The position numbers and the translations under genes were made by a program. 64,000 bases of DNA. Origin: Patescibacteria group bacterium. Lineage in GTDB: Bacteria > Patescibacteriota > Patescibacteriia > JAHJFT01. Below the pieces are notes generated by a model. That model saw only the letters and a list, made by a program, of their open reading frames with translations. It was not told the origin of the DNA and did no database searches. Shown piece by piece: positions 628 to 32,866 of this stretch. Each line of letters starts with the position of its first letter. Position 1 is the first letter of the stretch. The stretch spans positions 6,888-70,887 of the forward strand of contig JAQTTB010000002.1 of assembly GCA_028710985.1 (NCBI GenBank). Reading direction: 5' to 3'.

Positions 628-1857
628 ATGAAACACGACATTGATGACAATCAGGTGGATACAATAATTGAACACGAACTCCGGCGCCAGCAGGATGTTC
701 TGGAAATGATTCCGTCGGAAAACTATGTTTCTCCGGCCGTGCTCAATGCCCTTGGATCCGTCCTGACCAACAAGTACGCCGAAGGCTATCCCGGCAGACG
801 CTACTACGGCGGCTGCGAAAATATTGATGAGATTGAAACACTGGCAATTGAACGCGCAAAAAAATTGTTCAGCGCCAACTTTGTTAATGTTCAGCCCCAC
901 TCCGGCGCGCCGGCCAACATGGCGGTTTATTTCGGCCTGCTTGAACCCGGGGACATCATTCTGGGCATGGACTTATCGCACGGCGGCCACCTGACCCACG
1001 GCCATCCGGTGACATACACGTCAAAAATTTTCAACTTCATCAGATACAAGACCGCGAGCGACGGCCTGCTTGATTATGAAAACATTCATGAACTTGCCGT
1101 CAAACATCATCCAAAAATGATTCTTGTGGGCTACAGCGCGTATTCGCGGGACATTAATTTCCAAAAAATCCACGAGATCGCCGAGGAGATTGAAGCCTAC
1201 ACCATGGCCGACATTGCCCACATCGCCGGCATCATCGCGGCCGGAGAAATGGCCAATCCGGTTCCCCTCTTCGATGTTGTCACCACCACGACGCACAAGA
1301 CTCTCCGCGGTCCGCGCGGCGGCATGATTATGTCCAAGGACGCTGACGTGGCCAAACGCATTGATAAAGCCGTGTTCCCGGGCCTGCAGGGCGGTCCGCA
1401 CGAAAACAATATCGCCGCCAAAGCCGTGGCTTTTCACGAAGCCCTTCAGCCGGAATTTAAAACCTATATCAAGCAAGTGCTTGCCAATGCCAAAGTTCTT
1501 GAACAGGAATTCAAAAAAAGCGGCATCAAAATCTGCTTTGGCCAGACCGACAATCATCTGCTCCTCCTGGATGTCACACCGCTCGGCCTCACCGGCAAGC
1601 AGGCTGAAACCGCTTTGGACGCCGCCGGCATTACGGTCAACAAAAACATGATTCCCGATGATCCCCGCTCGCCCATGGATCCCTCTGGCATCCGGCTCGG
1701 AACGCCGGCCATCACCACCCGCGGCATGAAAGAGCCGGAAATGAAACAAATCGCCGAGTGGATTATCCAAGCTCTGAAAAACCATACAAACGAATCGGAG
1801 CTTGCCAAGATTAAATCTCAAGTCAAAAAATTAACTTCAAAATTCCCCATATATTAA
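628..1857 (+). CDS. glyA: serine hydroxymethyltransferase
   Basis: 409 aa with strong SHMT motifs (PSENYVSPAVLNALGSVLTNKYAEGYPGRRYYGGCE; TTHKTLRGPRGG). Confidence 0.95.
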   Translation: MKHDIDDNQVDTIIEHELRRQQDVLEMIPSENYVSPAVLNALGSVLTNKYAEGYPGRRYYGGCENIDEIETLAIERAKKLFSANFVNVQPHSGAPANMAVYFGLLEPGDIILGMDLSHGGHLTHGHPVTYTSKIFNFIRYKTASDGLLDYENIHELAVKHHPKMILVGYSAYSRDINFQKIHEIAEEIEAYTMADIAHIAGIIAAGEMANPVPLFDVVTTTTHKTLRGPRGGMIMSKDADVAKRIDKAVFPGLQGGPHENNIAAKAVAFHEALQPEFKTYIKQVLANAKVLEQEFKKSGIKICFGQTDNHLLLLDVTPLGLTGKQAETALDAAGITVNKNMIPDDPRSPMDPSGIRLGTPAITTRGMKEPEMKQIAEWIIQALKNHTNESELAKIKSQVKKLTSKFPIY

Positions 1858-1871
1858 AAAAATATCAATAA

Positions 1872-1908
1872 CAAAAACCGTCCCTACTTTATCCAGGGGC
1901 GGTTTTAT
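1872..1908. terminator. bidirectional rho-independent terminator between glyA and the convergent gene
   Basis: Hairpin AAAACCGTCCCT...AGGGGCGGTTTT flanked by A/T runs. Confidence 0.5.
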
Positions 1909-1915
1909 GATTATA

Positions 1916-2299
1916 TTAATTTAGCCGCGGAAAGGCGCTCATATCCAATATCTCCTTCTCTTCGTCACGCGAAATCACATCTTTATCTGCCAGATTAACA
2001 ACCAGGGCGGAATCCTTTGTATCCACTTTTTTAATAATCGGAATCCATTCAGCCCTAAAGTCAGCCAGCTTATCGTCAAGATAATCCTTGGTTACCATTA
2101 ATGCCTCTATTCGATTAAAGCGTTTATCAACTTGCTCAAACCTCTCGTCAATCTTATTAAATCGCTGTTCAATGCTCATGAATCGCTGGTCAACGCCATT
2201 GAATCTTTGATCAACTTTATTAAAGCGATCGTCAACACTATCGGCAAAAATATGCAGGGCATCCAATATTTCGTCAATTTTTGTCTCTAATTTATTCAT
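1916..2299 (-). CDS. hypothetical protein with tandem heptad repeats (DQRFNKV-like x6)
   Basis: 127-aa ORF with internal repeats DQRFNKV / DQRFNGV / DQRFMSI / EQRFNKI / DERFEQV / DKRFNRI. Confidence 0.45.
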   Translation of the reverse strand: MNKLETKIDEILDALHIFADSVDDRFNKVDQRFNGVDQRFMSIEQRFNKIDERFEQVDKRFNRIEALMVTKDYLDDKLADFRAEWIPIIKKVDTKDSALVVNLADKDVISRDEEKEILDMSAFPRLN

Positions 2300-2367
2300 A
2301 TATATCGTTTATTAATTATAACAACTACAGTGCGCTCAATCAACGATCTGTCAAGCCCGGACAAACG

Positions 2368-3180
2368 TTAAAGCGGGCTTCGGATATTTTTAAGCCCGGG
2401 ATTGGTCACGTGCGTGTATAATTGCGTAGTCCGGATATTCTGATGGCCAAGCAGGGCTTGCACATAGCGCACGTCAGTGCCATTTTCCAGCAAATGCGTG
2501 GCAAAACTGTGCCGAAGCGCGTGGAATCCGGCGGGCTTGTTAATCCCAGCGCGCTTCACGCAGTCAGAAAATACTCTTTGCGCCGTCCGGGTCGTAAGCC
2601 GGCCGCCGCGTTCGCTCAAAAACAGGTATTCATCCCCTGTTTTTCCGGCCGCTAAATTCAGCAGTTCGGCCTTAATTCGCTCCGGTATAACCGAAACCCG
2701 ATCCTTACCGCCTTTTGCCTCGCGAATATTCAGCATAAGCTCATCAAAATCCACATCGCGTACGCGCAGTCCGACAACCTCACTCACCCTCAACCCCGCG
2801 CCATACGCCAGGGCAATGAGAAGCCGGTGCTTAGCATTACGGCAGACATTCAGAATCCGCCCAATCTCATCGCGCGTCAGAACCACCGGCAATTTTTGCG
2901 ACCTCTTCACCGCCCTCACTTCAAGCAACCCGTGGCTTTTTACCACTTGCCGGTAAAAAAATTTAATCGCATTCAGCCATAAATTAATGGTTTGCGGCGA
3001 TAATCCCCTATCCCGCGCGTACAATATAAAATCCCGCACATTTTCCGAATCGGCAACCGCAAAATTATGCTTTTTGAATAAAAAATACTCCTTAATCGCC
3101 CGCCGATAACTATCAATTGTCTTGGGACTATAATTACGCACTTTAAGCTCTTTTTCCGTCTGTTCTAAATATTCTTGCAT
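2368..3180 (-). CDS. tyrosine recombinase, integron-integrase-like but with Xer-like architecture (no IntI-specific extra domain)
   Basis: 270 aa. Box I region (AYGAGLRVSEVVGLRVRDVDFD), KGGKDR, box II (HALRHSFATHLLENGTDVRYVQALLGH...LYTHV) and a C-terminal 'IRSPL' tail. The motif LPVVLTRDEIGRIL is reminiscent of IntI1. The gene is divergent from the adjacent attC-separated cassette array. Confidence 0.8.
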   Translation of the reverse strand: MQEYLEQTEKELKVRNYSPKTIDSYRRAIKEYFLFKKHNFAVADSENVRDFILYARDRGLSPQTINLWLNAIKFFYRQVVKSHGLLEVRAVKRSQKLPVVLTRDEIGRILNVCRNAKHRLLIALAYGAGLRVSEVVGLRVRDVDFDELMLNIREAKGGKDRVSVIPERIKAELLNLAAGKTGDEYLFLSERGGRLTTRTAQRVFSDCVKRAGINKPAGFHALRHSFATHLLENGTDVRYVQALLGHQNIRTTQLYTHVTNPGLKNIRSPL

Positions 3181-3301
3181 ATATCAATGAATTATTGCTA
3201 AAATACCCTTATGCCCTTATATTCATTATCCCCCAACCACCACCCAACACACAACTTTTGGGTGTTGTCATCTTTTTTCAACATATAAGAACGAGTTAGC
3301 T
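3181..3301. promoter_or_regulatory. attI-like region with first cassette junction (GTTAGCT at 3295-3301) and likely cassette promoter
   Basis: GTTAGCT is the reverse complement of the R'' (AGCTAAC) of the first attC. Small inverted repeat CAACAC..GTGTTG at 3244-3270. A TATAAAT -10-like box precedes 3474. Confidence 0.4.
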
Positions 3302-3473
3302 GAAATATTCCTTTTCTTTTTTGGGCTATCGCCCAATTGTTTTAAGAAATTTTCAAATTTCTTTTTCATTAATTATAGAGGGGAATATGGAGTTTTCTTC
3401 GCTCCGCTACGAAAACGATTTATTTATAAGGGGAAAACTAGTACAATACATTTGCATTACTTGAATATAAATT

Positions 3474-4532
3474 ATGATGTCTCAAACAACGCTGTTCGGC
3501 GAAAAGTACAAAATACACCAATTTCCAAGAACTCAATATTTGGGAAGCAAGGAGAAGCTTATCAAGTGGATTCTTGAAATTGCCCCAAAAGATATTGGAA
3601 CTGTTTTTGATGCTTTTAGTGGCACATCTGTTGTTGGTTATTATTTTAAAGATGGAGGCTATAAGGTTTATAGTAATGACTTTTTAAAATGTAACTCTTT
3701 AATTTCTAAAGCTTTAATTGAAAATCAAAATATCACTCTTGATAAAAATGATATAGATATTTTGTTAGACGAAACTACAAAAGCTGATAATCTAATCGAA
3801 AAGATTTTTACTGGAGTTTTTTTTGAAAAAGACCAAGCAAAATTTTTAGATATATTTAGAGCCAATGTTGAAAAACTAGACAACGAGTATAAAAAAGCAT
3901 TGGCTTTAGCTTTAATGAATAGATCTCTGACAAGAAAAATTACATTAGGTCATTTTGCTCACTTAAAAGCAATTGAATACAGTAAAAATCCAGATAGAAT
4001 TAAAAGAAATGCAAGTTTAGCAAAACACCTAAAAGATATTTTTCAAAGTCTTGTTCATTCATATAATCATGCAATTTTTGATAATAAAAAAAGGAACAAA
4101 GTTTTTTGCGAAGATACAATTTCTTTGCTTCCAAAACTTCAAGATGTCGATTTGGCTTATTTTGATCCACCTTATGTTGGCTGTCACCCAGACTACCAAG
4201 CATTTTATCATTTTTTAGAAACTTTTGTTCAGTACTGGAAAAATAAAGAATTTGTAAATGGCACAAAGTCATATTTTCCCAAAAAAGAAAGTGGATTTGT
4301 TCAAAAAACGGATATTGAAAAATCTTTTGAAAAACTTTTTGAAAACAGCAAACATATTCCTTATTGGTTAGTTTCTTACAATAGCAAGAGTTATCCAGAG
4401 AAAGAAAGAATGATCGAACTTATCAAAAAGCACAAAAAGGTAAAAGTGTACGAAAACGAATACTCAAATCATTATGGCGGGAAAGGAAGCCGTAAAGGAA
4501 CAGTTGAATATTTATTTTATTGCTATAACTAA
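3474..4532 (+). CDS. N6-adenine DNA methyltransferase, D12 class (Dam-like)
   Basis: N-terminal 'QYLGSKEKLIKWI' and the 'FDPPYVG' DPPY motif. Confidence 0.8.
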   Translation: MMSQTTLFGEKYKIHQFPRTQYLGSKEKLIKWILEIAPKDIGTVFDAFSGTSVVGYYFKDGGYKVYSNDFLKCNSLISKALIENQNITLDKNDIDILLDETTKADNLIEKIFTGVFFEKDQAKFLDIFRANVEKLDNEYKKALALALMNRSLTRKITLGHFAHLKAIEYSKNPDRIKRNASLAKHLKDIFQSLVHSYNHAIFDNKKRNKVFCEDTISLLPKLQDVDLAYFDPPYVGCHPDYQAFYHFLETFVQYWKNKEFVNGTKSYFPKKESGFVQKTDIEKSFEKLFENSKHIPYWLVSYNSKSYPEKERMIELIKKHKKVKVYENEYSNHYGGKGSRKGTVEYLFYCYN

Positions 4533-4538
4533 AACATT

Positions 4539-5630
4539 ATGAATCATAAAATCTACCAACAACTCAAAAAACTATACGACGCAAACGACTTTGAAAAATT
4601 ACTCAAAGATTCAAATAGTTTGCTTTTTCTGAAAATTCGTTCAATCACAAGAAAAGCCTTGCTTGTTGAATTTGCAGAAAAAATTGACATCGATCCCAAT
4701 CAGGGTACCAACGATTTAATTGAACAAATCGTAAATAACCCAAAAACTGAAAAAGCTATTGATAAATTTATCAATGACAAATTCCAAAATGAAAGAAAGG
4801 AAAGAAAAATCTATGAAGATAAACTCATTTCGGAATTATATAAACTGAAAATTTTCGATTGGGGTGGTCTGTATCAAAACAATCTTGAACGAACGATAGT
4901 TGATAACTACATCAAAAAAATTAAAAACTTTGATGTTTTAATGGACAAAATTGATAACGAAATACACGAAAGTTTAAAGGGATATGTTTTGTGTTCTTGG
5001 TTTAATCACTGGACTTCAATTTTGATCGAAGATATTTTTAAGGAACACAAGAGAGTGTTACCAACGATTGGGTTAATCAAAAAAGTTGATTTTTTTGTCG
5101 ATCAAATACCTTTCGACCTTAAAGTAACTTATTTTCCGGACGGATTCATGGCTTTAAAACGAAAAGAAAAAGGACTAAAACCGGAACTTACTGAACTCAA
5201 ACAAATCGCCAAAGCAAATAAAATCAAATTTGACTCAACACAAAAAAATAAATCTCTCCTTTCTGAACTGTTAATCAGACTATCCGAGAGTCATCTTGAA
5301 CCAGCTAAAAAAGCGATAACAGAATTTCACAAAACGAGATGGAAAATAATTGAAGAAGCAATGGAAAATAAAAAAGGGCTCATTAAATGGCTTTATGAGG
5401 AACAAGGCGAAAGGCGTTTTGATTCTGCTAATCGTTTATTTTTAGTATTGATAGAAAAAAATAATCTTGAGGAAAGCTGGAAACTCAAACGCAATATTGA
5501 TTTTCTAAAAGAAAGTGTCGGGTCTTATCTTGATAAGTTTAAAATCAACGATAATTTAGAGATCAATTTTGACTGGAAAGATGAAAAATACACATCTGTT
5601 TCAGATGCCTTGTTTATAGTGAAAGAATAA
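4539..5630 (+). CDS. hypothetical protein; candidate cognate restriction endonuclease of the adjacent Dam-like MTase
   Basis: 363-aa ORF lying 6 bp downstream of the MTase in the same cassette. Possible PD-(D/E)xK-like 'VDQIPFDLKV'. No firm motif recognised. Confidence 0.35.
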   Translation: MNHKIYQQLKKLYDANDFEKLLKDSNSLLFLKIRSITRKALLVEFAEKIDIDPNQGTNDLIEQIVNNPKTEKAIDKFINDKFQNERKERKIYEDKLISELYKLKIFDWGGLYQNNLERTIVDNYIKKIKNFDVLMDKIDNEIHESLKGYVLCSWFNHWTSILIEDIFKEHKRVLPTIGLIKKVDFFVDQIPFDLKVTYFPDGFMALKRKEKGLKPELTELKQIAKANKIKFDSTQKNKSLLSELLIRLSESHLEPAKKAITEFHKTRWKIIEEAMENKKGLIKWLYEEQGERRFDSANRLFLVLIEKNNLEESWKLKRNIDFLKESVGSYLDKFKINDNLEINFDWKDEKYTSVSDALFIVKE

Positions 5631-5635
5631 AGATT

Positions 5636-6451
5636 ATGGAAGAATTTATAACTAAATGGCAAACATTGATTGGCTCCGCACTTGGTCCTTTTCTTGCGGT
5701 TATTCTTTCAGCTATAGGTTTTTGGATAAAATCAATCATAGAAGGTAAGAAAGAGCGAAAAGAATTTTTGCGACGAATAGAAATTGGAATTACTCGAAGT
5801 CTTGATGATACATTCAAAACTCGAATAAAACTCCAATATTTTGTATCAAGATTGAGAACACTAATTACAGACATCAGAAAAATAACAGACATTAAACATT
5901 TTTCTCTTGAAACCATAAACTACCCAACCATACGCGATATTTATAAAGACGTCGATTTAGCAAATTTCAAGGTTAAAAGCTACTATCTACACAACATGCT
6001 TTTATGGGCTGACGCAGGAATCAAAGAAACAAATGAAACAGTAATCAGTCTAAAAAATGACTTTGCTGAATTGCAGAGAAAAAACGAACTACATATTATC
6101 TTAATGAGACAAAACCAAACACCAAATCCCGCCCAACAAAGAGCAGAATACGCCGACAATCTTGAATCATTTGCAAACGCCATAGATGAATTTATAACAA
6201 AATTCATGAAACAGGGCGTCGAGATATTGACTCAAATTAAAATTTATAACGAACATTTACGGAAAAAACATGGTTATTGGTTTTTATGGAAATGTGAAGG
6301 AACTAAATTTAAGTATTTTCGCAATAAAACCGAACAGAAAAATTTCTCAAGAAATCTTGACTCAATGGAAAGAATTGACAAAATTATCCAGAAAGAAGTT
6401 GGTGATGCTATCAAAGACGCAGAAGCCAGAGCCTCGAAACTACAACAATAA
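5636..6451 (+). CDS. hypothetical membrane-anchored coiled-coil protein
   Basis: 271-aa ORF with an N-terminal TM segment, in the same AT-rich cassette. Confidence 0.45.
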   Translation: MEEFITKWQTLIGSALGPFLAVILSAIGFWIKSIIEGKKERKEFLRRIEIGITRSLDDTFKTRIKLQYFVSRLRTLITDIRKITDIKHFSLETINYPTIRDIYKDVDLANFKVKSYYLHNMLLWADAGIKETNETVISLKNDFAELQRKNELHIILMRQNQTPNPAQQRAEYADNLESFANAIDEFITKFMKQGVEILTQIKIYNEHLRKKHGYWFLWKCEGTKFKYFRNKTEQKNFSRNLDSMERIDKIIQKEVGDAIKDAEARASKLQQ

Positions 6452-6524
6452 GATGTTTTCGGTCGGGGCAATTCACCCCTTTAATTCCCCTCTTGCCACT
6501 CCCTCAAACGAAAAAGAAATATTG

Positions 6525-6577
6525 TGTTTTGGATTTTGGGCATTCACCCCTAACCCCTCTGCCCAAAATCCAAAACG
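6525..6577 (+). other. 17-bp-stem hairpin in the cassette-1 3' region
   Basis: TGTTTTGGATTTTGGGCA / TGCCCAAAATCCAAAACG with a 17-nt loop. ATTCACCCCT is repeated at 6469 and 6542. Confidence 0.5.
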
Positions 6578-6645
6578 GAAAAAGAAATTTGAAAATTTTT
6601 TAAAACAAGTTTTCTTATCAGAAAACAAAAGAAAAGGAATACATC

Positions 6646-6743
6646 AGCTAACAGCGTATATCTGGTTCGCGCTTGCCTAACGGCAAATGCTCACCCATAT
6701 TGCTCCCTGCGGTCGCAACATCAGATATACGCGAACGTTGTGC
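6646..6743 (+). repeat. attC-like site 1 (R'' AGCTAAC, L'' GCGTATATCTG, L' CAGATATACGC, R' GTTGTGC)
   Basis: Perfect 11-bp L''/L' inverted repeat. R'' is complementary to the cassette start at 3295. Confidence 0.6.
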
Positions 6744-6796
6744 GGCATTGGCTTTCCATTTTTACTTCTTGAACATTCAATTATTTGGGCAGTTTT

Positions 6797-6838
6797 TTGA
6801 AAAATAAAATGACCCGTCAGCAGTTTGCCAAACGGGTC
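6797..6838 (-). terminator. rho-independent terminator of the reversed cassette gene
   Basis: Minus-strand hairpin GACCCGTTTGGCAAACTGCTGACGGGTC followed by ATTTTATTTTTC. Confidence 0.55.
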
Positions 6839-6882
6839 GTACAGATGAGGGGCGGCGGGGCGCGTTATTGCTCAGCAAGACT

Positions 6883-7164
6883 TCATCCTTCCAGTCTCGA
6901 AGTCACCTCCCTGAAGTGTTTACCGAGTTCCGGAAATGCAGAACCGCCGCGGATCTCATGAACTCGTCTGCAGATGGTCTTACGTTGCCGTTCTGGAAAA
7001 ACAGATTCCTTGAGAACTTCCAGCAACGTAATAGCCTTCTGTCTCCGCGCGTTGTCTTCTGCGTCCATGGTAGCGTCGCGATATCCGGAAGGATTGTACC
7101 TTGGCTTCACGGCTTCCTCAATCTTGTCGAGGAGTACTTGTGCCACTGATCTTTTTTCGCTCAT
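6883..7164 (-). CDS. hypothetical 93-aa protein (GC-rich gene in reverse orientation inside the cassette array)
   Basis: AAGGAGGTG Shine-Dalgarno 7 nt upstream of the ATG and its own terminator downstream. Chosen over the overlapping plus-strand ORF 6868..7149. Confidence 0.55.
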   Translation of the reverse strand: MSEKRSVAQVLLDKIEEAVKPRYNPSGYRDATMDAEDNARRQKAITLLEVLKESVFPERQRKTICRRVHEIRGGSAFPELGKHFREVTSRLEG

Positions 7165-7275
7165 GTCGCACCTCCTTTTATTACGCTAGCGACTCTTTCT
7201 TTTACCACAACCGCGCCCCGCCTGTCAAGAGATGGCAACTGCCCAAATAATTGAATAAAATGGAAAGTCAACATC

Positions 7276-7423
7276 GTATAACAAAGTATATTTGGCTCTG
7301 CTCCTCTCCCGCCGTTGGCGGGTTCGTCGCTCCGCCCAAATTGGCTTCCGTTCCGGCGGTGTGCTTTCGCACAATTAAACCGCCTCCACTCCAGCCAACT
7401 TCATATATACTTAAACGTTAAAT
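7276..7423 (+). repeat. attC-like site 2 (R'' GTATAAC, R' GTTAAAT)
   Basis: Imperfect palindrome TATAACAAAGTATAT...ATATATACTTAAACGTTAAAT. Centre contains TCGCTCCGCCCAAATTGG and a GTGTGCTTTCGCACA hairpin. Confidence 0.5.
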
Positions 7424-7506
7424 CCAATAGCGATTGTAATTGATAATCCCATCCCAAAGGCAGTGCTTAACGATAACTTAATAAATGTCTAAAATTTTAT
7501 AAAATT

Positions 7507-8343
7507 ATGAAGATAAAAATTTTAGGTTCGGGTGCATGGGAAGGAATTCCAGTTCCATTCTGTAAATGTAAAATTTGCGAATCAGCAAAGAAACCTAATT
7601 CAAAAGATAACAGAACAAGACCGCAAATTTCAATTGAATCGGATGAAGGGCAATTTTTGATAGAAATAAGTCCTGACATTCGCATTCAATCCACAAAATT
7701 TAATTTACCAAATATTAGCAATTTCCTAATAAGTCACTGGCATTTTGACCACATGTATGGCTTATTAGAACTTCATGCATGGATAGAATTTGTTTTAGGA
7801 CAAAAATCAAAATTATTTTGCTCTCAAAAGACAAAAGAATGGCTCGACCAGAGTTTTGGACATATACCAAAAGAAATAATTGTAGTCAAGCCATTTGAAA
7901 AATTTGATTTATTTGGCACAAAAATTACTCCGATACCTCTTTATCACATGAGTGGGCGAGATAATAATACAAAAGAAAACGAATTAGATAATGCGTATGG
8001 TTTTCTTTTAGAAAAAAATGGTAAAAAGGCAATTTATCTCGCCGATTACTATAAATTGCCAAATAAATCTTTAGAACTTGTAAAAGATTCCGATATTATT
8101 ATTGCTGATGGAACTTATCTTTTTGAAGAATCTTTTCCAGACAAACCAGAGCAAAATAATTTAAAAACTGACCCAGACCATTTGCATGGAAAACAAATTC
8201 TTGATTTTGTTAGCGGATTGAATGCTAAGAAAGTGATTTTTCATAGTATTTCACATTTAACAGAAAAATCACATGAGGAACTTCAAAAATTGCTCCCAAA
8301 AAATATGTTTATTTCTTATGATGGAATGGAACTGGAATTATAA
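7507..8343 (+). CDS. MBL-fold metallo-hydrolase
   Basis: HWHFDH motif; 278 aa; single-gene cassette. Confidence 0.7.
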   Translation: MKIKILGSGAWEGIPVPFCKCKICESAKKPNSKDNRTRPQISIESDEGQFLIEISPDIRIQSTKFNLPNISNFLISHWHFDHMYGLLELHAWIEFVLGQKSKLFCSQKTKEWLDQSFGHIPKEIIVVKPFEKFDLFGTKITPIPLYHMSGRDNNTKENELDNAYGFLLEKNGKKAIYLADYYKLPNKSLELVKDSDIIIADGTYLFEESFPDKPEQNNLKTDPDHLHGKQILDFVSGLNAKKVIFHSISHLTEKSHEELQKLLPKNMFISYDGMELEL

Positions 8344-8443
8344 ACGCACTGCCTTTTCCCACCCTTAAAATAGCAATCGCTACTCCTTCGCTCCATTTCA
8401 TTCCGCTCGGGCACGTTGCACTCTCCTCACTTCGTTCGTCGGC

Positions 8444-8538
8444 GGATTTAACAGGGCTTAAAGGGTTCGCTCGTTACACTTCGCTCTCCCAAATTTTTTG
8501 TGTGCGACAAAAAACTTCCCTTAAGCCCGATGTTATGT
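8444..8538 (+). repeat. attC-like site 3 (R'' GGATTTAAC, L'' AGGGCTTAAAGGG, L' CCCTTAAGCCC, R' GTTATGT)
   Basis: R'' is the exact reverse complement of the 9-mer GTTAAATCC that starts this cassette. L'' carries one extra A relative to L', as for an extrahelical base. Confidence 0.7.
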
Positions 8539-8564
8539 GAAATTTTTGTCCTATTTTTATCTAT

Positions 8565-8954
8565 ATGAACATAAAAAAAACTATTTTTAAAACCATTCTT
8601 ATAAATATTCTACTAGTTACAATTACAGCTATTATCTTAAGTTCGGTGTATTTACTTTCAGCACAAAAGACCGATCCAAAAAATTACTTACATATGGAAT
8701 ATTTAGATGACGAATTGCAGAATGGTCATTACATATGTCCGCATTTATGGGACAGATACTCCTATGCATGTGGCACAGGGGACTTAATTTATACTTTTGT
8801 TGTAGGTACTGTTGGTATAATTTTCCTTGCGTACATTCCACTTGGTCCAACTGCAGAATATGCGATTTTGAATTATGCAATTCTTTTGATAATTTTTATC
8901 ACTGTTTATATTGTGTCCAAAAATAGTACAAAAACATCACATAACAGCGTATAG
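8565..8954 (+). CDS. hypothetical small membrane protein (cassette-encoded)
   Basis: 129 aa with 2-3 predicted TM segments. The stop codon lies inside the attC R''/L'' region. Confidence 0.5.
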   Translation: MNIKKTIFKTILINILLVTITAIILSSVYLLSAQKTDPKNYLHMEYLDDELQNGHYICPHLWDRYSYACGTGDLIYTFVVGTVGIIFLAYIPLGPTAEYAILNYAILLIIFITVYIVSKNSTKTSHNSV

Positions 8955-9015
8955 CAGACTACGCTTCGCTCCGTCCAAATTGCTATGCAACTTCTGCTAT
9001 ACGTAAACGTTAGGC
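8938..9015 (+). repeat. attC-like site 4 (R'' CACATAAC, L'' AGCGTATAGCAG, L' CTGCTATACGT, R' GTTAGGC)
   Basis: R'' is the exact reverse complement of GTTATGTG at 8532. Centre contains TCGCTCCGTCCAAATTGC. Confidence 0.7.
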
Positions 9016-9036
9016 GAAATAACAAAAATTACCAAT

Positions 9037-9378
9037 ATGATATATATAATCTGGTTAGTCTTACTTAGCCTCTTTGTTTTTTCTTTCCTTGTTCCCAAAT
9101 TTCCTATCTGGATTCCTGTTTTAGCCTATTTATTGGTAGTTGGCGTGAGAGTTAAAGAAAAATATGGGAATTACTTAGATTGGATTGAAAAAAACCACCG
9201 CGATGAAGAGCGAGCGATTGATGCAAATTTGCATGATTTCGAAATTAAAGGGTTGGCCACAAGCGGAATGCGACTAAAGCAGGAAAATCATATTAAAAAA
9301 GACTTCGAGTATGAACGAAAAAAACAAAAAAGACAAAGAGACACAGAGCTAATCGATTGCTTATTCATAAAAAAGTAA
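9037..9378 (+). CDS. hypothetical small membrane protein (cassette-encoded)
   Basis: 113 aa with a hydrophobic N-terminus and a K/E-rich tail. Confidence 0.5.
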   Translation: MIYIIWLVLLSLFVFSFLVPKFPIWIPVLAYLLVVGVRVKEKYGNYLDWIEKNHRDEERAIDANLHDFEIKGLATSGMRLKQENHIKKDFEYERKKQKRQRDTELIDCLFIKK

Positions 9379-9390
9379 TTTTTGTTACAT

Positions 9391-9824
9391 CGCCTAACAC
9401 GGCATATCTGACTTCGCTTAAAAAACAGATAATTTTATTTACTAATATGCTACAATTATGTACGTACCCGCATGGATTTTCTTCGTCATTATGATAGCTA
9501 TGGCAGCTGCAACTATAGTAATTGATGATCACATAAAAAAGCAGAATAACAAACTAGAAGATCGAATTGATGATATCGAAAAAAGAATTAATGGTATTGA
9601 GGATTTTGTTGGTTTAGACGAAACGGCCCTAAAAGTACATAAGGAGTTGAAGATGGAGCAAGAGATGGATGAAATAACAAGGAATTCTTTTAATAAACAA
9701 GCTGGAAGGAATGTAAAATGAACATAGGATTATCTATTTTTTTAGCTCCGCCCATATTCCGCGCACACATTTTAATTAATAAATTGGGAGTGCGCGAAAC
9801 ATCGGATATGCCGAAACGTTATGT
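9391..9824 (+). repeat. attC-like site 5, enlarged to about 430 bp (R'' CGCCTAAC, L'' CGGCATATC at 9391-9411; L' GATATGCCG, R' GTTATGTG at 9804-9825)
   Basis: R'' is the exact reverse complement of GTTAGGCG at 9009. L''/L' match 9/9 although they lie 390 bp apart. The conserved centre (AGCTCCGCCCATATTCC plus a CGCGCAC..GTGCGCG hairpin) sits in the 3' half. Confidence 0.5.
9458..9721 (+). CDS. hypothetical 87-aa TM/coiled-coil protein carried on an insertion inside attC 5
   Basis: ORF lies between imperfect inverted repeats TAAAAAACAGATAAT (9419-9433) and ATTATCTATTTTTTTA (9729-9744). Confidence 0.4.
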   Translation: MYVPAWIFFVIMIAMAAATIVIDDHIKKQNNKLEDRIDDIEKRINGIEDFVGLDETALKVHKELKMEQEMDEITRNSFNKQAGRNVK

Positions 9825-9855
9825 GAAGTAATAATAATTCACTATTGCCCTTAAA

Positions 9856-10245
9856 ATGGAAAAAAAGATTAACAAATTCATCTATTGGACGCCGAGAATA
9901 TTATCAATAATGTTCATTTTATTCTTGATGCTGTTTTCTTTGGACATCTTTGACATGGATTTGAATTTTTGTGAAACTCTCGTTGGTCTGTTTATGCATA
10001 ATATCCCCGCATTATTCCTGTTGATCATTTTAATAATTTCCTGGAAATATGAAATTGTCGGAGGAATCGCCTTTATTCTCGCGGGGCTACTCTATATCCT
10101 GTTGCTGGCAATGAATCCCGTATTTGGATGGTATATGCTGTCATGGCCGGTAACAATTTCCGGTCCGGCATTTTTAATAGGAACATTATTTTTGGTTGGC
10201 TGGTTTTTAAAAAGAAAATCCAATAAAAATATTACTAAAATTTAA
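9856..10245 (+). CDS. hypothetical polytopic membrane protein (last cassette-like gene)
   Basis: 129 aa with 4 predicted TM helices; follows R' GTTATGTG at 9818. Confidence 0.5.
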   Translation: MEKKINKFIYWTPRILSIMFILFLMLFSLDIFDMDLNFCETLVGLFMHNIPALFLLIILIISWKYEIVGGIAFILAGLLYILLLAMNPVFGWYMLSWPVTISGPAFLIGTLFLVGWFLKRKSNKNITKI

Positions 10246-10256
10246 CTAAAAAAATT

Positions 10257-10736
10257 ATGAAAAAAACATTTTTTATGTTTGCCGCATGCCTGGGATTTAT
10301 CATAATTTTATCCGGCTGCCAAACTTATTCTCCGGATATATCAACCGAATCACCCGGCATAGAAGACGCCCTTCAGCCGGTCGGCCTGGCAAATCCGGCA
10401 TCGGAAAATTGCGTACAAAAAGGCGGCACCTTGGAAATGCGAACGAACAAAAACGGCGAATACGGAGTTTGCCTTTTTGAAGACAACCGCCAATGCGAAG
10501 AATGGGCGCTTTTCCGCGGCAATTGTCCGGTTGGCGGTTTAAAAATCACGGGCTATGACAACGACGCCGAGATATATTGCGCCATCACCGGCGGACAGGT
10601 TGAAGGCGTGGGAACCGAAACTCCGATGTGCAAAAGAATCGACGGTACATATTGCAACGCCCAATCCAACCTGGATGGCGAATGCCCGGACCCGAATGAT
10701 CCGAATCCCAACGCCGGAAATGTGGAAGCGCCGTAA
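10257..10736 (+). CDS. DUF333-type lipoprotein (two Cys-rich repeats)
   Basis: Lipobox ILSGC. Duplicated 'NC...GG...C' modules (ENCVQKGGTLE...; EIYCAITGGQVE...). Confidence 0.55.
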   Translation: MKKTFFMFAACLGFIIILSGCQTYSPDISTESPGIEDALQPVGLANPASENCVQKGGTLEMRTNKNGEYGVCLFEDNRQCEEWALFRGNCPVGGLKITGYDNDAEIYCAITGGQVEGVGTETPMCKRIDGTYCNAQSNLDGECPDPNDPNPNAGNVEAP

Positions 10737-10746
10737 AAAGATATAA

Positions 10747-11202
10747 ATGAAAAAACCAAAACTGATAAGAATTGATCTGGACAAGCCGATTACCCGGCTT
10801 GTGGGCAAGAGTGATCACAAAACACTGGGAATCTGGGCGGCTGACTGCGCCGAGCGGGTATTGCACTATTTTGAAGAAAAATATCCAAAAGATAATCGTC
10901 CCCAAAAAGCAATCAAGGCGCTCCGAACGTGGGTTAAGACCGGGGTGTTTAAAATGGCGGATATACGCGGATATTCGCTTGCGGCTCACGCGGCCGCCCG
11001 CGAAGTGAAGGAAGATGACGACGCGGCCCGGTCCGCCGCCCGCGCCGCCGGCCAGGCGGTGGCGACCGCGCATGTTCAGACTCACGCGATCGGCGCCGCA
11101 ATCTATGCCGCCACCGCGGTCCGCGACGCGACCGGCTCAATTGATGCCGCGGCCAAGGAACGCGACTGGCAATACCGCCGCCTGCTCAAAATGATAAAAT
11201 AA
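10747..11202 (+). CDS. hypothetical Ala-rich protein, possibly an immunity-protein-like family
   Basis: 'WAADCAERVL' motif and an Ala-rich helical C-terminal half. Confidence 0.45.
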   Translation: MKKPKLIRIDLDKPITRLVGKSDHKTLGIWAADCAERVLHYFEEKYPKDNRPQKAIKALRTWVKTGVFKMADIRGYSLAAHAAAREVKEDDDAARSAARAAGQAVATAHVQTHAIGAAIYAATAVRDATGSIDAAAKERDWQYRRLLKMIK

Positions 11203-11206
11203 ATTT

Positions 11207-11692
11207 ATGGAATTTCTTGACATCGTTGACCAAAACGACAATGTCATCGGCACGGCTTCCCGGAACGAAGTCTACGAAAAATCGCTGTGCCACCGCATCG
11301 CGCATGTTTTAATATTCAACGAAGAAGGAAAAATTGTTTTACAAAAAAGAAGCGATAAAGTATGCTTTTGCCCGGGCCACTGGTCAACCGCGGTCGGCGG
11401 TCATGTGCAAACCGGCGAAACCTATGAGCAAGCCGCTCTGCGCGAATATCAGGAAGAACTAGGGGCGAAAAGCATACTGGAGTTTGTCGGGAAAGACTTA
11501 TATAATGTTCCCCATACTCCCAATAAATTTCTAACCACCTTCAGAACACAGTTCAATGGTCCATTCGATCCGGACGCTGAAGAGGTTTCCGAAGTCGGAA
11601 TGTTCGATATCCAGGAAATACAAACAATGCTCGAGCGCGGAGAAAAATTTCACCCTGAATTAATATTTATTCTAAAAAAGTATTATCTATGA
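11207..11692 (+). CDS. NUDIX hydrolase
   Basis: Nudix box GGHVQTGETYEQAALREYQEELG. Confidence 0.8.
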   Translation: MEFLDIVDQNDNVIGTASRNEVYEKSLCHRIAHVLIFNEEGKIVLQKRSDKVCFCPGHWSTAVGGHVQTGETYEQAALREYQEELGAKSILEFVGKDLYNVPHTPNKFLTTFRTQFNGPFDPDAEEVSEVGMFDIQEIQTMLERGEKFHPELIFILKKYYL

Positions 11693-12357
11693 AAATACCA
11701 AAAAAGGCAGTAACTATTTCATTAATAATCATCGCGACTATTTTCGCGGTCTTCTTCGTGAGATTTTTCCTCGGCGGGCCGGAAGACAGCTGGATTTGCG
11801 TTAACGGCGAATGGGTTCAGCATGGAGCGCCGAGCATGCCCATGCCGGACGAACCGTGCACTCCTGTCAAAAATACCGCCACTGTAACAATCTCGGACGT
11901 CACGCTCTATCGCGGAACATGGTTTGATATTGAATATCCCAACGGCTTTACTCCAAGCCCGACAACTCCGACCGAAATCCGCGAAGGCGCAACGTACGTA
12001 CAGACCGACGAAGCGCGCTTTGTTTCTCCGGACGGAACGATTGAATTTTTTGTCTTTTCACCGCTGTGGGGCGGAGATCCGGCCGATTATCTGACCATCG
12101 GCCCGGCGGAAGAATTGGTTGATGAAGAAACCCAGGAAAGCGGAGCCGGCGTTGACAGTAAAATCACGCGATGGGTCACCGTAAGGGCAACCGACGGCTC
12201 ATACTACCGTTCATTCGTATCAATCAAAAGCCAGGTGGGAACCGGGAGCGATTTGCATCATGTATTCGGCATAAAATACCGCGACAATGAAACATACGAA
12301 TTGTACCGGGATGCTTATGTTGATTTCAAAAATTCTTTAAATCAGTACTCTGATTAA
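11689..12357 (+). CDS. hypothetical membrane-anchored/secreted protein
   Basis: N-terminal TM segment; 222 aa; start overlaps the upstream gene by 4 bp. Confidence 0.5.
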   Translation: MKIPKKAVTISLIIIATIFAVFFVRFFLGGPEDSWICVNGEWVQHGAPSMPMPDEPCTPVKNTATVTISDVTLYRGTWFDIEYPNGFTPSPTTPTEIREGATYVQTDEARFVSPDGTIEFFVFSPLWGGDPADYLTIGPAEELVDEETQESGAGVDSKITRWVTVRATDGSYYRSFVSIKSQVGTGSDLHHVFGIKYRDNETYELYRDAYVDFKNSLNQYSD

Positions 12358-12360
12358 AAT

Positions 12361-13296
12361 ATGAAAAATATTATTGTCACCGGCGCCACCGGACAAATCG
12401 GTTCCGAGCTGGTCATTGAATTAAGAAAAAAGTACGGCGAGCGGCAGGTCGTGGCCGTCGGCCATTCCAAGCCCATGTCCGGAGAATTAGCCAACGGTCC
12501 TTTTGAAACCGTTGATGTCACCGATAAAGCCGCGCTGGAAGAACTGGTGAACAAATACCAGCCGGACGCGATTTTCCACCTGGTCGGAATATTATCCGCC
12601 ACCGGCGAAAAAAATCCCGAACTGGCCTGGAATATCAACATGGGCGGCCTAAAAAATGTTCTGGACATCGCGCGCGACCGCCATATAGAAAAAGTTTTCT
12701 GGCCGAGCTCAATCGCGGCGTTCGGACCGACCACGCCCCGCGACAACACGCCGCAGCATACGGTTCTGGAACCCACTACCATGTACGGCGTGACCAAGGT
12801 CGCCGGAGAGCTTTTATGCCAGTATTATTGGAAAAAGTACGGACTGGACGTCCGGAGCTTGCGCTATCCGGGTTTAATCAGCTATAAAACACCCCCTGGG
12901 GGCGGCACGACCGATTACGCCGTGGCGATCTATTTTGAAGCCATAAAAAACAAGAAATATGAATGCTTTGTCGGGCCGGATACCGTTCTGCCCATGATGT
13001 ATATGCCCGACGCGGTCCGCGCCACTATTGAGCTCATGGAAGCGCCGGCCGAAAATATTAAAGTCCGAACCAGCTATAATTTGACGGCCATGAGTTTTTC
13101 CGCCGAAGAACTTGCCCGGTCGGTTAGCGATTCAATAAAAGACTTCACCTGCACTTATCATCCCGACGAGCGGCAGAAAATCGCGGATTCGTGGCCGCGG
13201 TCAATTGACGACCGCGCGGCCCGGGCGGACTGGGGCTGGAATCATATCTTTGATCTGAAAAAAATGAGCGAAGATATGTTAAAAAATATTCAATAA
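12361..13296 (+). CDS. NAD-dependent epimerase/dehydratase family protein (L-threonine 3-dehydrogenase-like)
   Basis: GATGQIGSEL Rossmann motif, YGVTKVAGE catalytic YxxxK, 311 aa. Confidence 0.7.
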   Translation: MKNIIVTGATGQIGSELVIELRKKYGERQVVAVGHSKPMSGELANGPFETVDVTDKAALEELVNKYQPDAIFHLVGILSATGEKNPELAWNINMGGLKNVLDIARDRHIEKVFWPSSIAAFGPTTPRDNTPQHTVLEPTTMYGVTKVAGELLCQYYWKKYGLDVRSLRYPGLISYKTPPGGGTTDYAVAIYFEAIKNKKYECFVGPDTVLPMMYMPDAVRATIELMEAPAENIKVRTSYNLTAMSFSAEELARSVSDSIKDFTCTYHPDERQKIADSWPRSIDDRAARADWGWNHIFDLKKMSEDMLKNIQ

Positions 13297-13298
13297 TC

Positions 13299-14123
13299 AT
13301 GCAGCTAATTGACGGCAAATCATTGGCCAAACAAATTCGCGGGCAGGTTCGCGCGCGGATTTCGGAAAGCGGTATTGCGCCCGGGCTCGCCATAATTCTG
13401 ATCGGCGATAATCCGGCCAGCGCGCTTTATGTTTCTCTCAAAGAAAAAGCCTGCCTTGAAGTCGGCGTCCGTTTCGAAAAATTTATTTACTCGGGGACTG
13501 AATCATCCGAAGAAATCATCGCCAAAATCCGTGAACTTAATGCCCGGCCCGATATCCACGGCATTCTTGTCCAGCTTCCCCTGCCCCCGGCCTACACGAG
13601 CGATGACATCGTGCAGTCCATCGATCCGGCAAAAGACATCGACGGCTTTCATACGGAAAATATTGACGCCCTGGTCCAGGGCAAGCCGCGCATTATTCCG
13701 CCCATTCACCAGGGCATCGTGCGCCTGATTGAATCGACCGGCATTGAGACAACCGGAAAAAAAGCCGCGATTTTTGCGAACAGCGCGGTCTTTGCCCTCC
13801 CGCTCCGCAAACTCCTGGAAGATAAAAAAATCAGCGTCACCGTCGCCCTTCCTCCACTTGAAAACACCGAAATAATTGCCAACGAATCGGATATAATTAT
13901 CGTCGCCGTCGGACGGCCGAAATTTATCAGCTGCGCCGATATCAAAGATAACGCCGTTATTATTGACTGCGGCACCAACAAAATTGACGAAAAATTGTTC
14001 GGCGACGTTGATTCCGAAACCTGCGCGCAAAAAAACGGGTTTATCACACCCGTTCCCGGCGGCGTCGGTCCCATGACCATCGCCATGCTCCTCAATAACC
14101 TTTACGAATTAGCGCGGAAGTAA
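13299..14123 (+). CDS. folD: bifunctional methylenetetrahydrofolate dehydrogenase/cyclohydrolase
   Basis: N-terminal MQLIDGKSLAKQIR; VQLPLP motif; 274 aa. Confidence 0.9.
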   Translation: MQLIDGKSLAKQIRGQVRARISESGIAPGLAIILIGDNPASALYVSLKEKACLEVGVRFEKFIYSGTESSEEIIAKIRELNARPDIHGILVQLPLPPAYTSDDIVQSIDPAKDIDGFHTENIDALVQGKPRIIPPIHQGIVRLIESTGIETTGKKAAIFANSAVFALPLRKLLEDKKISVTVALPPLENTEIIANESDIIIVAVGRPKFISCADIKDNAVIIDCGTNKIDEKLFGDVDSETCAQKNGFITPVPGGVGPMTIAMLLNNLYELARK

Positions 14124-27737: not shown

Positions 27738-27930
27738 CTTGGTTTCCTTTCCAACTTCCGCCTCGGGCGGAAAAGTGGGTGGCGCGGTGGAAGAGCCTTT
27801 CCTGATCCCGATAGCCCCAATGGCAATCAGGGGGGACAATCTCTTCAGCCCGCCGGGGAATTTTGTTTTTAAGGATCTCGACACTAAACATTAGCACTCT
27901 TTTTTCAAAATGTCAATACTGTCATGTTTT

Positions 27931-28330
27931 CGTCATTCCCGCGAAGGCGGGAATCCAAGCGCAATATACCGGGGGTATCTCAGTCAATATTATCGTACAA
28001 ATCACTCCAGAGAGGATTAAAATCCTCTATCAATCTAATCTTCCAACTGCGGTTCCATTTCTTTAATTGCTTTTCCCGCATAATTGCTTCTTCAATGCTC
28101 TCGTACATTTCGTAATATACTAACTTATTAATATAATGCTGCGCCGTGAAAGCGCTGTCTTCGCCTTGCTTATGCTCAAATACCCTGCGCTTTAAATTAT
28201 TCGTTACGCCAATATACAAAGTCCCGTTTCTATTGCTTGCGAGAATGTACGTATAAAATTGATAATAATCGAGCATCTGTACTATTTATTGTTTTCTGGT
28301 AGCTTATAGTATCTGGATTCCCGCCTTCGC
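27931..28330. mobile_element. 400-bp mini-element: 26-bp perfect hairpin-containing TIRs flanking a GIY-YIG nuclease gene
   Basis: CGTCATTCCCGCGAAGGCGGGAATCC at 27931-27956 and its exact reverse complement at 28305-28330. Each TIR folds as ATTCCCGC-GAAG-GCGGGAAT. Confidence 0.55.
27980..28276 (-). CDS. GIY-YIG nuclease family protein (COG2827-like, 98 aa)
   Basis: GTLYIGVTNNLKRRVFEH GIY-YIG motif. Confidence 0.8.
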   Translation of the reverse strand: MLDYYQFYTYILASNRNGTLYIGVTNNLKRRVFEHKQGEDSAFTAQHYINKLVYYEMYESIEEAIMREKQLKKWNRSWKIRLIEDFNPLWSDLYDNID

Positions 28331-28423
28331 GGGAATGACGGAAGAGTGATTTGCGTTAAAAAGCGATGCATGCCAGAATTTGACTTTATGCAAATGGAGT
28401 AGGAGATAAAAAACGCGATTTGT

Positions 28424-32749: not shown

Positions 32750-32756
32750 GATTAAG

Positions 32757-32866
32757 TCTAAAATTAAAAGTTAAAAGTCTAAAGTCAAGTTAAAAGTCTA
32801 AAAGTTTATAATTCAATGACTTTTAACTCAACTTTTAACTTTAGACTTTTGACTAAACTTTTTCAG
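32757..32866. repeat. AT-rich long imperfect palindrome (AAAAGTCTAAAG repeats)
   Basis: AAAGTTAAAAGTCTAAAGTCAAGTTAAAAGTCTAAAAG ... CTTTTAACTCAACTTTTAACTTTAGACTTTTGAC. Confidence 0.45.

Follow-up and report, generated by a model that had tools for sequence, protein, structure and literature searches.

A probable integron-like cassette platform with a short IntI/XerA-like recombinase, lacking the additional domain, in Patescibacteria

The stretch of 64,000 nucleotides considered here (the window; contig JAQTTB010000002.1 of assembly GCA_028710985.1, Patescibacteria group bacterium) contains a gene for a short tyrosine recombinase that lies divergent to a run of gene cassettes with palindromic junctions. 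The locus is probably a chromosomal integron-like cassette platform, in which the adjacent 270-aa, IntI/XerA-like recombinase of the 'Cand' type inserts and excises cassettes at the G|TT of a dif-like attI site. Such a platform is active in nature, at least in a Portnoybacteria relative (P0008), and is run there by an enzyme without the additional I2 helix of the integron integrases. The system is not filed as a member of the integrons, because both the defining protein feature and the canonical attC geometry fail.

The array was found to comprise five cassettes (3296-9818), which are divergent from the recombinase and co-oriented in four of five cases. A walk from the first GTT, with G.T pairs allowed, places the G|TT boundaries at 3295, 6737, 7417, 8532, 9009 and 9818. 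GC content drops to 29-40% across 3.2-10.2 kb compared with about 50% in the flanks, and glyA (628-1857) flanks the recombinase side of the locus. The first-pass annotation had described a 270-aa recombinase divergent to a palindrome-separated run of genes, and this integron-like layout was recovered with the open reading frame (ORF) at 2368-3180 on the minus strand. No partner for the last R' (GTTATGTGAAGT, 9818) is present downstream in the window and the array therefore ends at 9818-9829; the R' of junction site 5, its last right arm, is followed by chromosomal DNA. The features of the locus are as follows, R1 denoting a covariance model described below.

2368-3180, minus strand: tyrosine recombinase, 270 aa, IntI/XerA-like, without the IntI additional (I2) domain (ORF, profile and structure matches)
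3277-3306, plus strand: attI-like core, dif-like, about 115 nt upstream of the recombinase start codon
3296-6737, plus strand: cassette 1, 3442 bp, with a type II D12-class DNA methyltransferase at 3474-4532 (PADLOC MTase_II, 196 bits)
4539-5630 and 5636-6451: two ORFs of cassette 1 without assigned function
6641-6748, plus strand: junction site 1 (attC-like), with R'' ACATCAGCTAAC, L'' 6654-6666, L' 6720-6732, a GAAC bulge and R' GTTGTGCGGCAT
6738-7417, plus strand: cassette 2, 680 bp, with a 93-aa ORF without assigned function at 6883-7164, minus strand
7271-7428, plus strand: junction site 2 (attC-like), from hairpin scan and R1
7418-8532, plus strand: cassette 3, 1115 bp, with a metallo-beta-lactamase (MBL)-fold hydrolase, Apyc1-like, at 7507-8343
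8441-8543, plus strand: junction site 3 (attC-like), with one extra A in L'', from hairpin scan and R1
8533-9009, plus strand: cassette 4, 477 bp, with a 129-aa membrane protein at 8565-8954; its ends pair (8532-8558 / 8919-8945)
8934-9020, plus strand: junction site 4 (attC-like), from hairpin scan and R1
9010-9818, plus strand: cassette 5, 809 bp, with a 113-aa ORF at 9037-9378 and a second, 87-aa ORF at 9458-9721
9387-9829, plus strand: junction site 5, with R'' 9387-9398, L'' 9400-9410, a 392-nt loop, L' 9803-9813 and R' 9818-9829

Cassettes start with GTTRnnnGAAAT and end with ACATCnnnYAAC, and the start of a cassette is complementary to the R'' box at its own end. In four of the five cassettes, the resulting R stem consists of nine pairs, a 2x2 mismatch (A.A and A.C) and one further pair (start GTTRnnnGA-AA-T, end A-CA-TCnnnYAAC). 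Over the six nucleotides that follow GTT, start and end of the same cassette match at 27 of 30 variable positions, compared with 13 of 30 when the R' in the linear copy of the site is taken instead, and a match of 27 is reached by one of the 120 possible re-orderings. Only this window test, whose sites were found independently, is relied upon, as a pooled re-pairing test (0/100000) is biased by a site walker that selects for complementarity. The pairing continues in a cassette-specific manner past the R box, for about 73 nt in cassette 1, whose terminal inverted repeats occupy roughly 3295-3367 and 6578-6652, for about 58 nt interrupted by an indel in cassette 2 (6748-6794 / 7237-7271), about 27 nt in cassette 4 and about 24 nt in cassette 5. 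Across 15 cassettes from the window and its relatives, these extra segments reach a mean alignment score of about 38, where mismatched start/end pairs give a null of 17.3 +/- 4.

Four R'/R'' pairs had been reported in the first-pass annotation; on re-checking, all were located at the positions given and are exact reverse complements. Their description as consecutive cassettes was in error, since cassette 2 (6738-7417) intervenes between the first and the second of them. It had been missed because its ends pair through three G.T wobbles (GTTGTGCGG / CGTATAAC). The 7-9 nt of complementarity quoted for these pairs likewise understate its extent, which runs over nine pairs, two mismatched positions and one pair before the 25-75 nt of additional pairing.

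The junction sites were also recovered by two approaches that make no use of these pairs. A hairpin scan of the 64 kb (AAC, short spacer, stem of at least 10 bp, loop, return stem, spacer, GTT), in which R'/R'' complementarity was left unused, returned four sites with at least 10 paired bases and a spacer of 1 versus 3-4 nt, namely 6650-6739, 7280-7419, 8450-8534 and 8943-9011, while the remaining hits were at noise level. The covariance model R1 was built from nine sites of other Patescibacteria genomes and none of the window. It matched site 1 with 70.3 bits (E 4.7e-15), site 2 with 69.5 bits (E 7.5e-15), site 3 with 51.5 bits (E 2.2e-10) and site 4 with 70.0 bits (E 5.5e-15), and site 5 in two halves (9704-9831 with 29 bits, E 9e-5; 9385-9407 with 11.6 bits); elsewhere in the window, on both strands (128 kb), there was no other match at E<=10. 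The independent scan, the 27/30 against 13/30 matches, the single re-ordering among 120 and the model from other genomes place the pattern beyond chance, as had been claimed from the sequence at the outset.

Evidence for cassette movement comes from the P0008 relative, whose recombinase is 60% identical to that of the window and is present in identical copies on many contigs. Ten of these contigs were fetched. They are identical on the downstream side of the gene, which encodes murD/murC-type ligases, ribosomal protein L19 and FtsH, and over the 114 nt leading to ...ACGAG. Past ...ACGAG|TTAT they split into three different first cassettes with clean G|TT joints. A 1022-bp cassette, 99.9% identical over its full length, occupies position 1 in L093 and position 2 in L096, and a PALP cassette is located at position 2 in L093 and at position 1 in L094, L096 and L097 (L numbers designate loci). 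Cassettes have been replaced and re-ordered at G|TT beside an identical recombinase, and such exchange, by which integron cassettes are defined, occurs in nature for this member of the family. In one contig with the identical P0008 recombinase (L092), two junction sites and their genes are reversed (673-887 and 2751-2860) and face the recombinase, which suggests that part of this array was inverted.

Cassette 3 provides a second view of mobility. Homologues of its MBL-fold protein are 79-90% identical, compared with 63% for the nearest homologue of the recombinase, and the closest of them (82-90%) are encoded on contigs of 1-2.4 kb. In L086 and L087, R1-type sites lie on both sides of a copy with 86% identity and the gene that comes next is a different one (AbiTii), and in L083, L085 and L088 an MBL homologue is found in ordinary chromosomal surroundings. 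The R'/R'' complementarity of the L087 cassette is limited to GTT/AAC, and the signature is therefore not universal. Homologues of the cassette-3 protein (7507-8343) carry a precomputed assignment to PF23023, the Anti-Pycsar Apyc1 family. Others, 62-67% identical, are encoded in DPANN archaea (Aenigmarchaeota, Nanoarchaeia, Woesearchaeota), a degree of protein similarity that hints at gene sharing between small-genome bacteria and these archaea.

The natural junctions of the relative place the breakpoint at G|TTAT. In the window, the attI-like core is composed of the left arm CAACATATAA (3279-3288), the centre GAACGAG (3289-3295) and the right arm TTAGCTGAAAT (3296-3306), and the crossover falls between G3295 and T3296, at the boundary of centre and right arm. 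A core of the consensus TTCG[CT]ATA[AG]-nAAnGA-G|TTRnnnGAAAT was identified 50-135 nt upstream of the recombinase start in 26 of the 31 Patescibacteria loci examined. By inspection, attI fits a 10 + 7 + 11 division into putative arms and centre and resembles the two-armed core of E. coli dif. E. coli dif reads GGTGCGCATAA-TGTATA-TTATGTTAAAT, to which the family core cTTCGCATAA-TAACGA(G)-TTATCGGAAAT is similar. A dif site at the replication terminus was considered and rejected, since GC skew keeps one sign on both flanks of the locus and shows no switch there, both in the window and in six relatives (L007, L009, L013, L026, L034, L079). In many loci (L002, L003, L007, L012, L014, L020, L030), a near-perfect palindrome, TT[CT]G[CT]ATAA[TC]ATAC[AG]AA, was observed between the recombinase start codon and attI. 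It amounts to a pair of half sites of the left-arm type set almost directly against each other, and may represent an operator or accessory binding site; in the window it does not stand out.

Pairing between the two ends of a cassette is reflected in covariation. Among 15 sites from eight genomes, written in their circular form (own end joined to own start), 90.1% of the cells are paired and changes are seen on both sides in 20 of 29 pairs. The covariation score amounts to 0.642, compared with 0.18 after shuffling and at most 0.097 with slid partners. Selection of the sites by stem length inflates the covariation of the L stem, yet the six outermost pairs were not selected and covary as well. 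Folded as DNA, the circular form of site 1 reaches -35.5 kcal/mol for the top strand (z -8.1) and -40.0 for the bottom strand (z -10.9), and that of site 4 reaches -25.6 kcal/mol (z -8.6) and -28.8 (z -7.6), respectively. These folds correspond exactly to the predicted structure of R and L stems on both strands.

The L hairpin comprises 11-13 bp and its stem contains ATC[AG][GC]ATA..., a sequence similar to attI's left arm. Where the R stem gives way to the L stem, a single A on one strand faces NAAC or GAT (3-4 nt) on the other, a G.T pair is conserved in the L stem of 12 of 15 sites, and the central regions measure 7 nt in attI, 9 nt between L' and R' and 6 nt between R'' and L''. A loop motif, (T)CGCTCnnCCCA[AT]AT, occurs at 6686-6697, 7337-7351, 8495-8508, 8968-8981 and 9746-9760 as well as in distant Patescibacteria lineages, and could be a host-factor site or a promoter element. 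The general organisation is that of attC sites, with imperfect R''-L''...L'-R' palindromes, terminal AAC and GTT and an R'' that is complementary to the start of its own cassette. The canonical geometry, in which the R box has 7 bp, the spacers measure about 5 nt, some bases are extrahelical, the loop varies and the site spans 57-141 bp, is replaced by a spacer of 1 versus 3-4 nt, extended stems, a conserved loop motif and, in one case, a site of 443 bp. The palindromes called attC-like in the first-pass annotation are not canonical attC sites, their stems being long, their internal loop asymmetric and their loop motif conserved. A single extra base, which had been noted for several L''/L' pairs, is present in the site at 8441-8543 and in no other; the recurring unpaired features are instead the A versus NAAC internal loop, the 2x2 mismatch and the conserved G.T pair of the L stem. 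Rfam contains neither an attC family nor a family matching the junction sites.

The recombinase consists of an N-terminal SAM-like domain and a Phage_integrase domain (Pfam PF00589, 148.8 bits). It passes the NCBIfam model of archaeal XerA (NF040815, recomb_XerA_Arch; 232.3 bits, cutoff 220) and fails that of the integron integrase (TIGR02249; 228.7 bits in two stretches, cutoff 265), and remains far under the cutoffs of the XerC (196 bits, cutoff 335) and XerD (188 bits, cutoff 330) models. Among solved structures, VchIntIA (2A3V) ranks first with 165.7 bits, followed by XerA with 150 and 144 and XerD with 88. In the VchIntIA alignment, residues 7-173 correspond to 8-177 and residues 200-270 to 247-317. 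The I2 domain is absent, since 26 residues (174-199) stand where VchIntIA has 69 (178-246), so that about 43 aa of the IntI insertion are gone. The same alignment extends to the final residue of the protein (IRSPL versus VLSPL), while those with XerA and XerD end at 265-266. The catalytic residues R131, K156/159, H220, R223, H246 and Y255 are intact and invariant in 24 homologues. True IntI proteins, which are encoded at the related loci L064 and L074, share 36% identity with the window recombinase and are separated from it by 49-50 gap positions. A second tyrosine recombinase was not found within the 64-kb window.

These comparisons agree with the first-pass view of an IntI-like enzyme that is too short for the additional domain. 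That annotation had left a choice between a minimal IntI and a Xer-like enzyme with integron-type activity. The latter is at least as apt, because the sites are non-canonical, attI is dif-like, the XerA model is passed and the integron-integrase model failed. The most fitting description of the protein is that of an IntI-like enzyme devoid of I2 or, just as well, of a XerA-like enzyme with the tail of IntI.

The family is large. Proteins of about 270 aa with about 60% identity to the recombinase number in the thousands, the nearest relative being 63% identical. R1 was applied to 80 related loci of 20 kb, taken from a scan with one genome per species, and returned 27 sites at E<=0.001; the search for the same site family in related genomes, suggested earlier, was thus successful. 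All R1 sites in Patescibacteria are located upstream of the recombinase, on the opposite strand. Of the loci that extend far enough upstream of the recombinase gene, nearly all carry at least one cassette, with L016 giving no match at E<=0.001. Four apparently empty platforms from a chain walk (L009, L011, L034, L079) were withdrawn after R1 had matched sites there. The arrays contain 1-5 cassettes of 0.2-3.4 kb each. Contigs end within 600 nt on the array side at 20 of 33 loci and on the other side at one of 33 (p = 2e-5), and three contigs terminate precisely at GTTA, GTTAT or GTTATGTG. A scan of viral contigs with CAGATAYACNNNAACGTTRNNNGAAAT gave 0 matches.

Two further observations concern the relatives. 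Mini-cassettes of 175-240 nt without an ORF were identified on the reverse complement of L013 (10915-11089, 12111-12285, 12894-13070), L026 (10907-11146, 12570-12809) and L030 (10915-11114). They are repeated, alternate strictly with gene cassettes, and differ from the other sites in that their 12-bp R hairpin is perfect, the 2x2 mismatch being absent, and the spacers of their L hairpin are symmetric (0/0); they may represent a parasitic hairpin element or a spacer unit. More distant relatives in Bacteroidota and Spirochaetota (33-40% identity; L044, L052, L061, L062, L065, L069, L080, L037) are likewise devoid of the IntI insertion and have ...KSPLD as their C-terminus. N-terminal extensions of 80-300 aa occur in most of these proteins, with L037 (265 aa) having none and L069 (291 aa) one of about 20 aa. 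They adjoin attC-type arrays with the same R'/R'' chaining, several of which are located downstream on the recombinase strand, and R1 matches L061 four times.

A mechanism can be proposed with one structured site per cassette. Once the cassette is excised as a circle, its start (TTRnnnGAAAT...) would pair with its own end (...ACATCnnnYAAC) to form a long stem with a 2x2 mismatch. This R stem would stack on the L stem of 11-13 bp, and the folded strand would mimic a two-armed Xer core, with the R stem as right-arm duplex, the L stem as a duplex resembling the left arm of attI, and a centre of 6 versus 9 nt. A Xer-type monomer bound to the right arm is predicted to cleave the bottom strand at 5'-...YAA^C, which is the bottom-strand cleavage position of integrons. 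A single strand exchange at AA^C / G^TT would follow, and its product would be resolved by replication, as in attC x attI recombination and in the integration of CTX-phi at dif. The asymmetric centre, with 1 versus 3-4 unpaired nucleotides, might block a second strand exchange; together with the conserved mismatches, it could replace the I2 helix and the extrahelical bases in strand choice and in this block. The long cassette-specific stems, finally, may make up for the enzyme's need of a full duplex arm. The data demonstrate the anatomy, the covariation and the crossover position, along with cassette exchange in the relative, while activity of the window's enzyme, a single-stranded substrate, the reacting strand and the avoidance of a second exchange without I2 are what we infer here.

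Several points weigh against this interpretation. The additional domain that defines IntI is absent, and of the two relevant cutoffs it is that of XerA which is passed and that of the integron integrase which is failed. The recombinase family is 50-63% identical across Patescibacteria lineages, more conservation than an accessory integrase usually shows and in keeping with a housekeeping role. Array-form (linear) copies of the sites fold into the L stem only, without a stable R stem (z -1.7 and -2.2), the spacing from R to L box departs from canonical attC, and the single-stranded substrate is deduced solely from covariation and folding. Moreover, no rearrangement was seen in the window's own organism, in which three sequencing runs show the same order.

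An unlikely alternative is that the protein is the single housekeeping Xer of Patescibacteria and attI the chromosomal dif beside its gene, as in XerS/difSL and XerH/difH, so that cassettes would be small hitch-hikers of the kind of integrative mobile elements exploiting Xer (IMEX), mimicking dif by a folded hairpin in the manner of CTX-phi, and the array a by-product. The passed XerA model, the very high protein identity across lineages, the lack of a paralogue within the window and the dif-like core are in agreement with it, as is the published 'Cand' subgroup of Xer-related recombinases from candidate phyla, which is listed among class-specific Xer substitutes (Smyshlyaev et al., PMC8138268). 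It is at odds with the position of the locus away from a GC-skew switch, the usual place of dif in bacteria (window and six relatives), with cassettes at nearly all loci that have enough upstream sequence (L016 being without), and with a protein that is nearer to IntI than to XerA or XerD and has an IntI-type C-terminal tail. This alternative alters the main task of the enzyme only and not the way in which cassettes move.

Double-stranded modules of the Acinetobacter pdif kind, with alternating complete cores, exchange of both strands and no hairpin, are distinctly more improbable. Formally, sites of the form L'-centre-R' do alternate in orientation with those of the form R''-centre-L'', the centre of the R''-L'' site has the canonical length of 6 nt, genes are found between R arms or between L arms (window ORF 9458-9721; L013 cassette 4), and L092 has two sites in inverted orientation. 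The centres, however, are unequal (7, 9 and 6 nt) and differ in sequence among cassettes, which is unfavourable to two-strand exchange, and a single recombinase is present rather than a XerC/XerD pair. Compensatory changes keep L'' and L' paired, the would-be central nucleotides included, and cassette starts and ends stay complementary for 25-75 nt past any protein-binding arm, for which intramolecular pairing is the sole explanation. Hardly credible, finally, is the view of the palindromes as ordinary intergenic elements, such as terminators or REP/MITE-like repeats (repetitive extragenic palindromes or miniature inverted-repeat transposable elements), next to an unrelated integrase of a low-GC island. 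Hairpins between genes are common and the recombinase does lie at one edge of a low-GC island. Against this stand the strand specificity of the sites and their restriction to the upstream side of the recombinase in many genomes, the cassette-specific complementarity of ends, the conserved attI, the exchange of whole cassettes at G|TT, and terminator-like and promoter-like counts at chance; coincidental palindromes are excluded.

Several details of the window's array deserve mention beside the integron-like platform preferred here. PADLOC, Pfam and NCBIfam gave no match for six of the nine cassette ORFs. The ORF at 9458-9721 lies inside the loop of the L hairpin (9400-9813), i.e., between L'' and L' and not between R' and R''. 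A gene is likewise held within the L loop in L013 (Wolfebacteria CP011209, reverse complement 12323-12896; R loop 25 nt, L loop 559 nt), which suggests that a core site can have its cargo on one side or the other, or that the L arm can be a place of exchange as well. A promoter and terminator scan gave counts at chance level, and a TTGCTA-17-TATATT match at 3195-3223 that faces the array is not regarded as evidence for a cassette promoter. A classical integrase island with attL and attR was rejected, as flanking direct repeats beyond the core are absent and the interior is modular. Logan unitigs of the three sequencing runs match the window without a difference over 767-3319, 3409-6582 and 6703-10505. 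They break at 3319, 3409, 6582 and 6703, on either side of the inverted repeats at the ends of cassette 1; neither simple presence/absence nor inversion of this cassette fits the breaks, and heterogeneity, inverted repeats or coverage could account for them. Between the end of the array and folD (13299-14123), the region 9856-13296 contains DUF7670, DUF333, Imm5-like, NUDIX and epimerase genes and no junction sites; these accessory-looking genes could be old cassettes stripped of their sites.

Elsewhere in the window, a second low-GC island (40261-48398, 34-39% GC) has neither a recombinase nor junction sites and contains defence-type genes coding for a KAP-family NTPase (1091 aa), a GmrSD-N + HNH protein, an EcoRI-type methyltransferase and an AbiEii toxin. 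An Rfam tRNA call at 57165-57281, which spans 117 nt and was not reported by ARAGORN, is probably an intron-containing tRNA. Three repeat features are unrelated to the array: a 30-nt pair of inverted repeats with 97% complementarity, 356 nt apart (27928-27957 / 28314-28343; TTTCGTCATTCCCGCGAAGGCGGGAATCCA), a further pair at 61577-61606 / 61679-61708 (GTCATCCTGAG...CTCAGGATGAC), and a cluster of AAAAGTTAAAAGTCTAAAGTC-type repeats at 32732-32877.

In published work, the recombination of attC sites is credited to the I2 helix as the enabling innovation, and an enzyme of Xer type hijacked by single-stranded IMEXs has been proposed as ancestor (PMC7790495 section 21; PMC4792948). It is quite possible, if slightly less likely than not, that the family is a living pre-I2 stage of the integron, i.e., hairpin-based single-strand cassette recombination at a dif-like site without the additional domain, which would be nearly universal in Patescibacteria and whose insertion-less relatives adjoin attC-type arrays in Spirochaetota, Bacteroidota and possibly DPANN archaea. 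If so, the I2 helix would not be required for cassette recombination, and many 'integrase-less' attC clusters in metagenome-assembled genomes would adjoin an unrecognised integrase. In Archaea, 539 attC sites were reported in 75 genomes with only six IntIs (PMC9668308), an excess which, as a speculation, would fit unrecognised integrases without I2. The findings suggest that surveys demanding the IntI-specific domain, such as IntegronFinder, miss a large class of cassette platforms. The hypothetical Xer-like integron ancestor now has a natural and widespread counterpart in architecture, with population evidence of G|TT exchange, and the origin of integrons becomes experimentally testable. A minimal structure-specific recombination system is also on offer, as is a route of gene exchange, including defence genes, in the small-genome Patescibacteria. 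Cassette arrays adjoining candidate-phyla recombinases were not described in the full-text literature searched, which left most subscription journals outside its scope, so that prior work is possible.

Among known systems, the Acinetobacter pdif modules share modules bounded by inversely oriented Xer-type half sites and a cargo of toxin-antitoxin and resistance or defence genes. They differ in their complete, double-stranded 28-bp XerC/XerD sites, without hairpin covariation, extended terminal pairing or an adjacent dedicated recombinase; in place of 28-bp sites with 6-bp centres, the present system shows alternation with centres of 9, 6 and 7 nt and one recombinase. The 'Cand' simple tyrosine recombinases and archaeal XerA are of the same family, with about 270 aa, a SAM-like N-terminal and a catalytic domain and a pass of the XerA model, but the 'Cand' subgroup was published as Xer-related, together with Xer substitutes, and reports of cassette arrays or of a neighbouring attI were not found. 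CTX-phi and other IMEXs that integrate at dif via host XerCD have in common with the proposed mechanism a folded strand that mimics a two-armed Xer core with an asymmetric or unpaired centre that would keep a second exchange from taking place, a recombinase without the I2 helix, elements without their own recombinase and tandem arrays at the site. They are phages or islands, in contrast to the gene cassettes of 0.2-3.4 kb and the single recombinase found here, where the target adjoins the recombinase gene away from a GC-skew switch and exchange takes place on the side of the XerD-like arm.

Integrons, especially the sedentary chromosomal ones, share the divergent recombinase, the mostly co-oriented array, the adjacent attI and the G|TT crossover. 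Further common traits are a cassette start that is complementary to the R'' at its own end, imperfect palindromes that are built of R and L boxes and leave some positions unpaired, natural re-ordering of cassettes, and a cargo of defence genes or genes without assigned function. The window recombinase differs from their integrases in lacking the additional domain (I2 helix). In integrons, an R of about 7 bp forms the stem base and the R-L spacer is about 5 versus 5-6 nt, whereas here the R stem has 9 bp, a 2x2 mismatch and 25-75 nt of extra pairing, and the spacer is 1 versus 3-4 nt. Loops of attC are not conserved, in contrast to the loop motif GCTCnnCCCAWAT, and in the present system in-array copies lack the R stem, genes are possible in the L loop and arrays are short (1-5 cassettes). 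Taken together, the system looks like the hypothesised intermediate between chromosome-resolving Xer enzymes and integrons.

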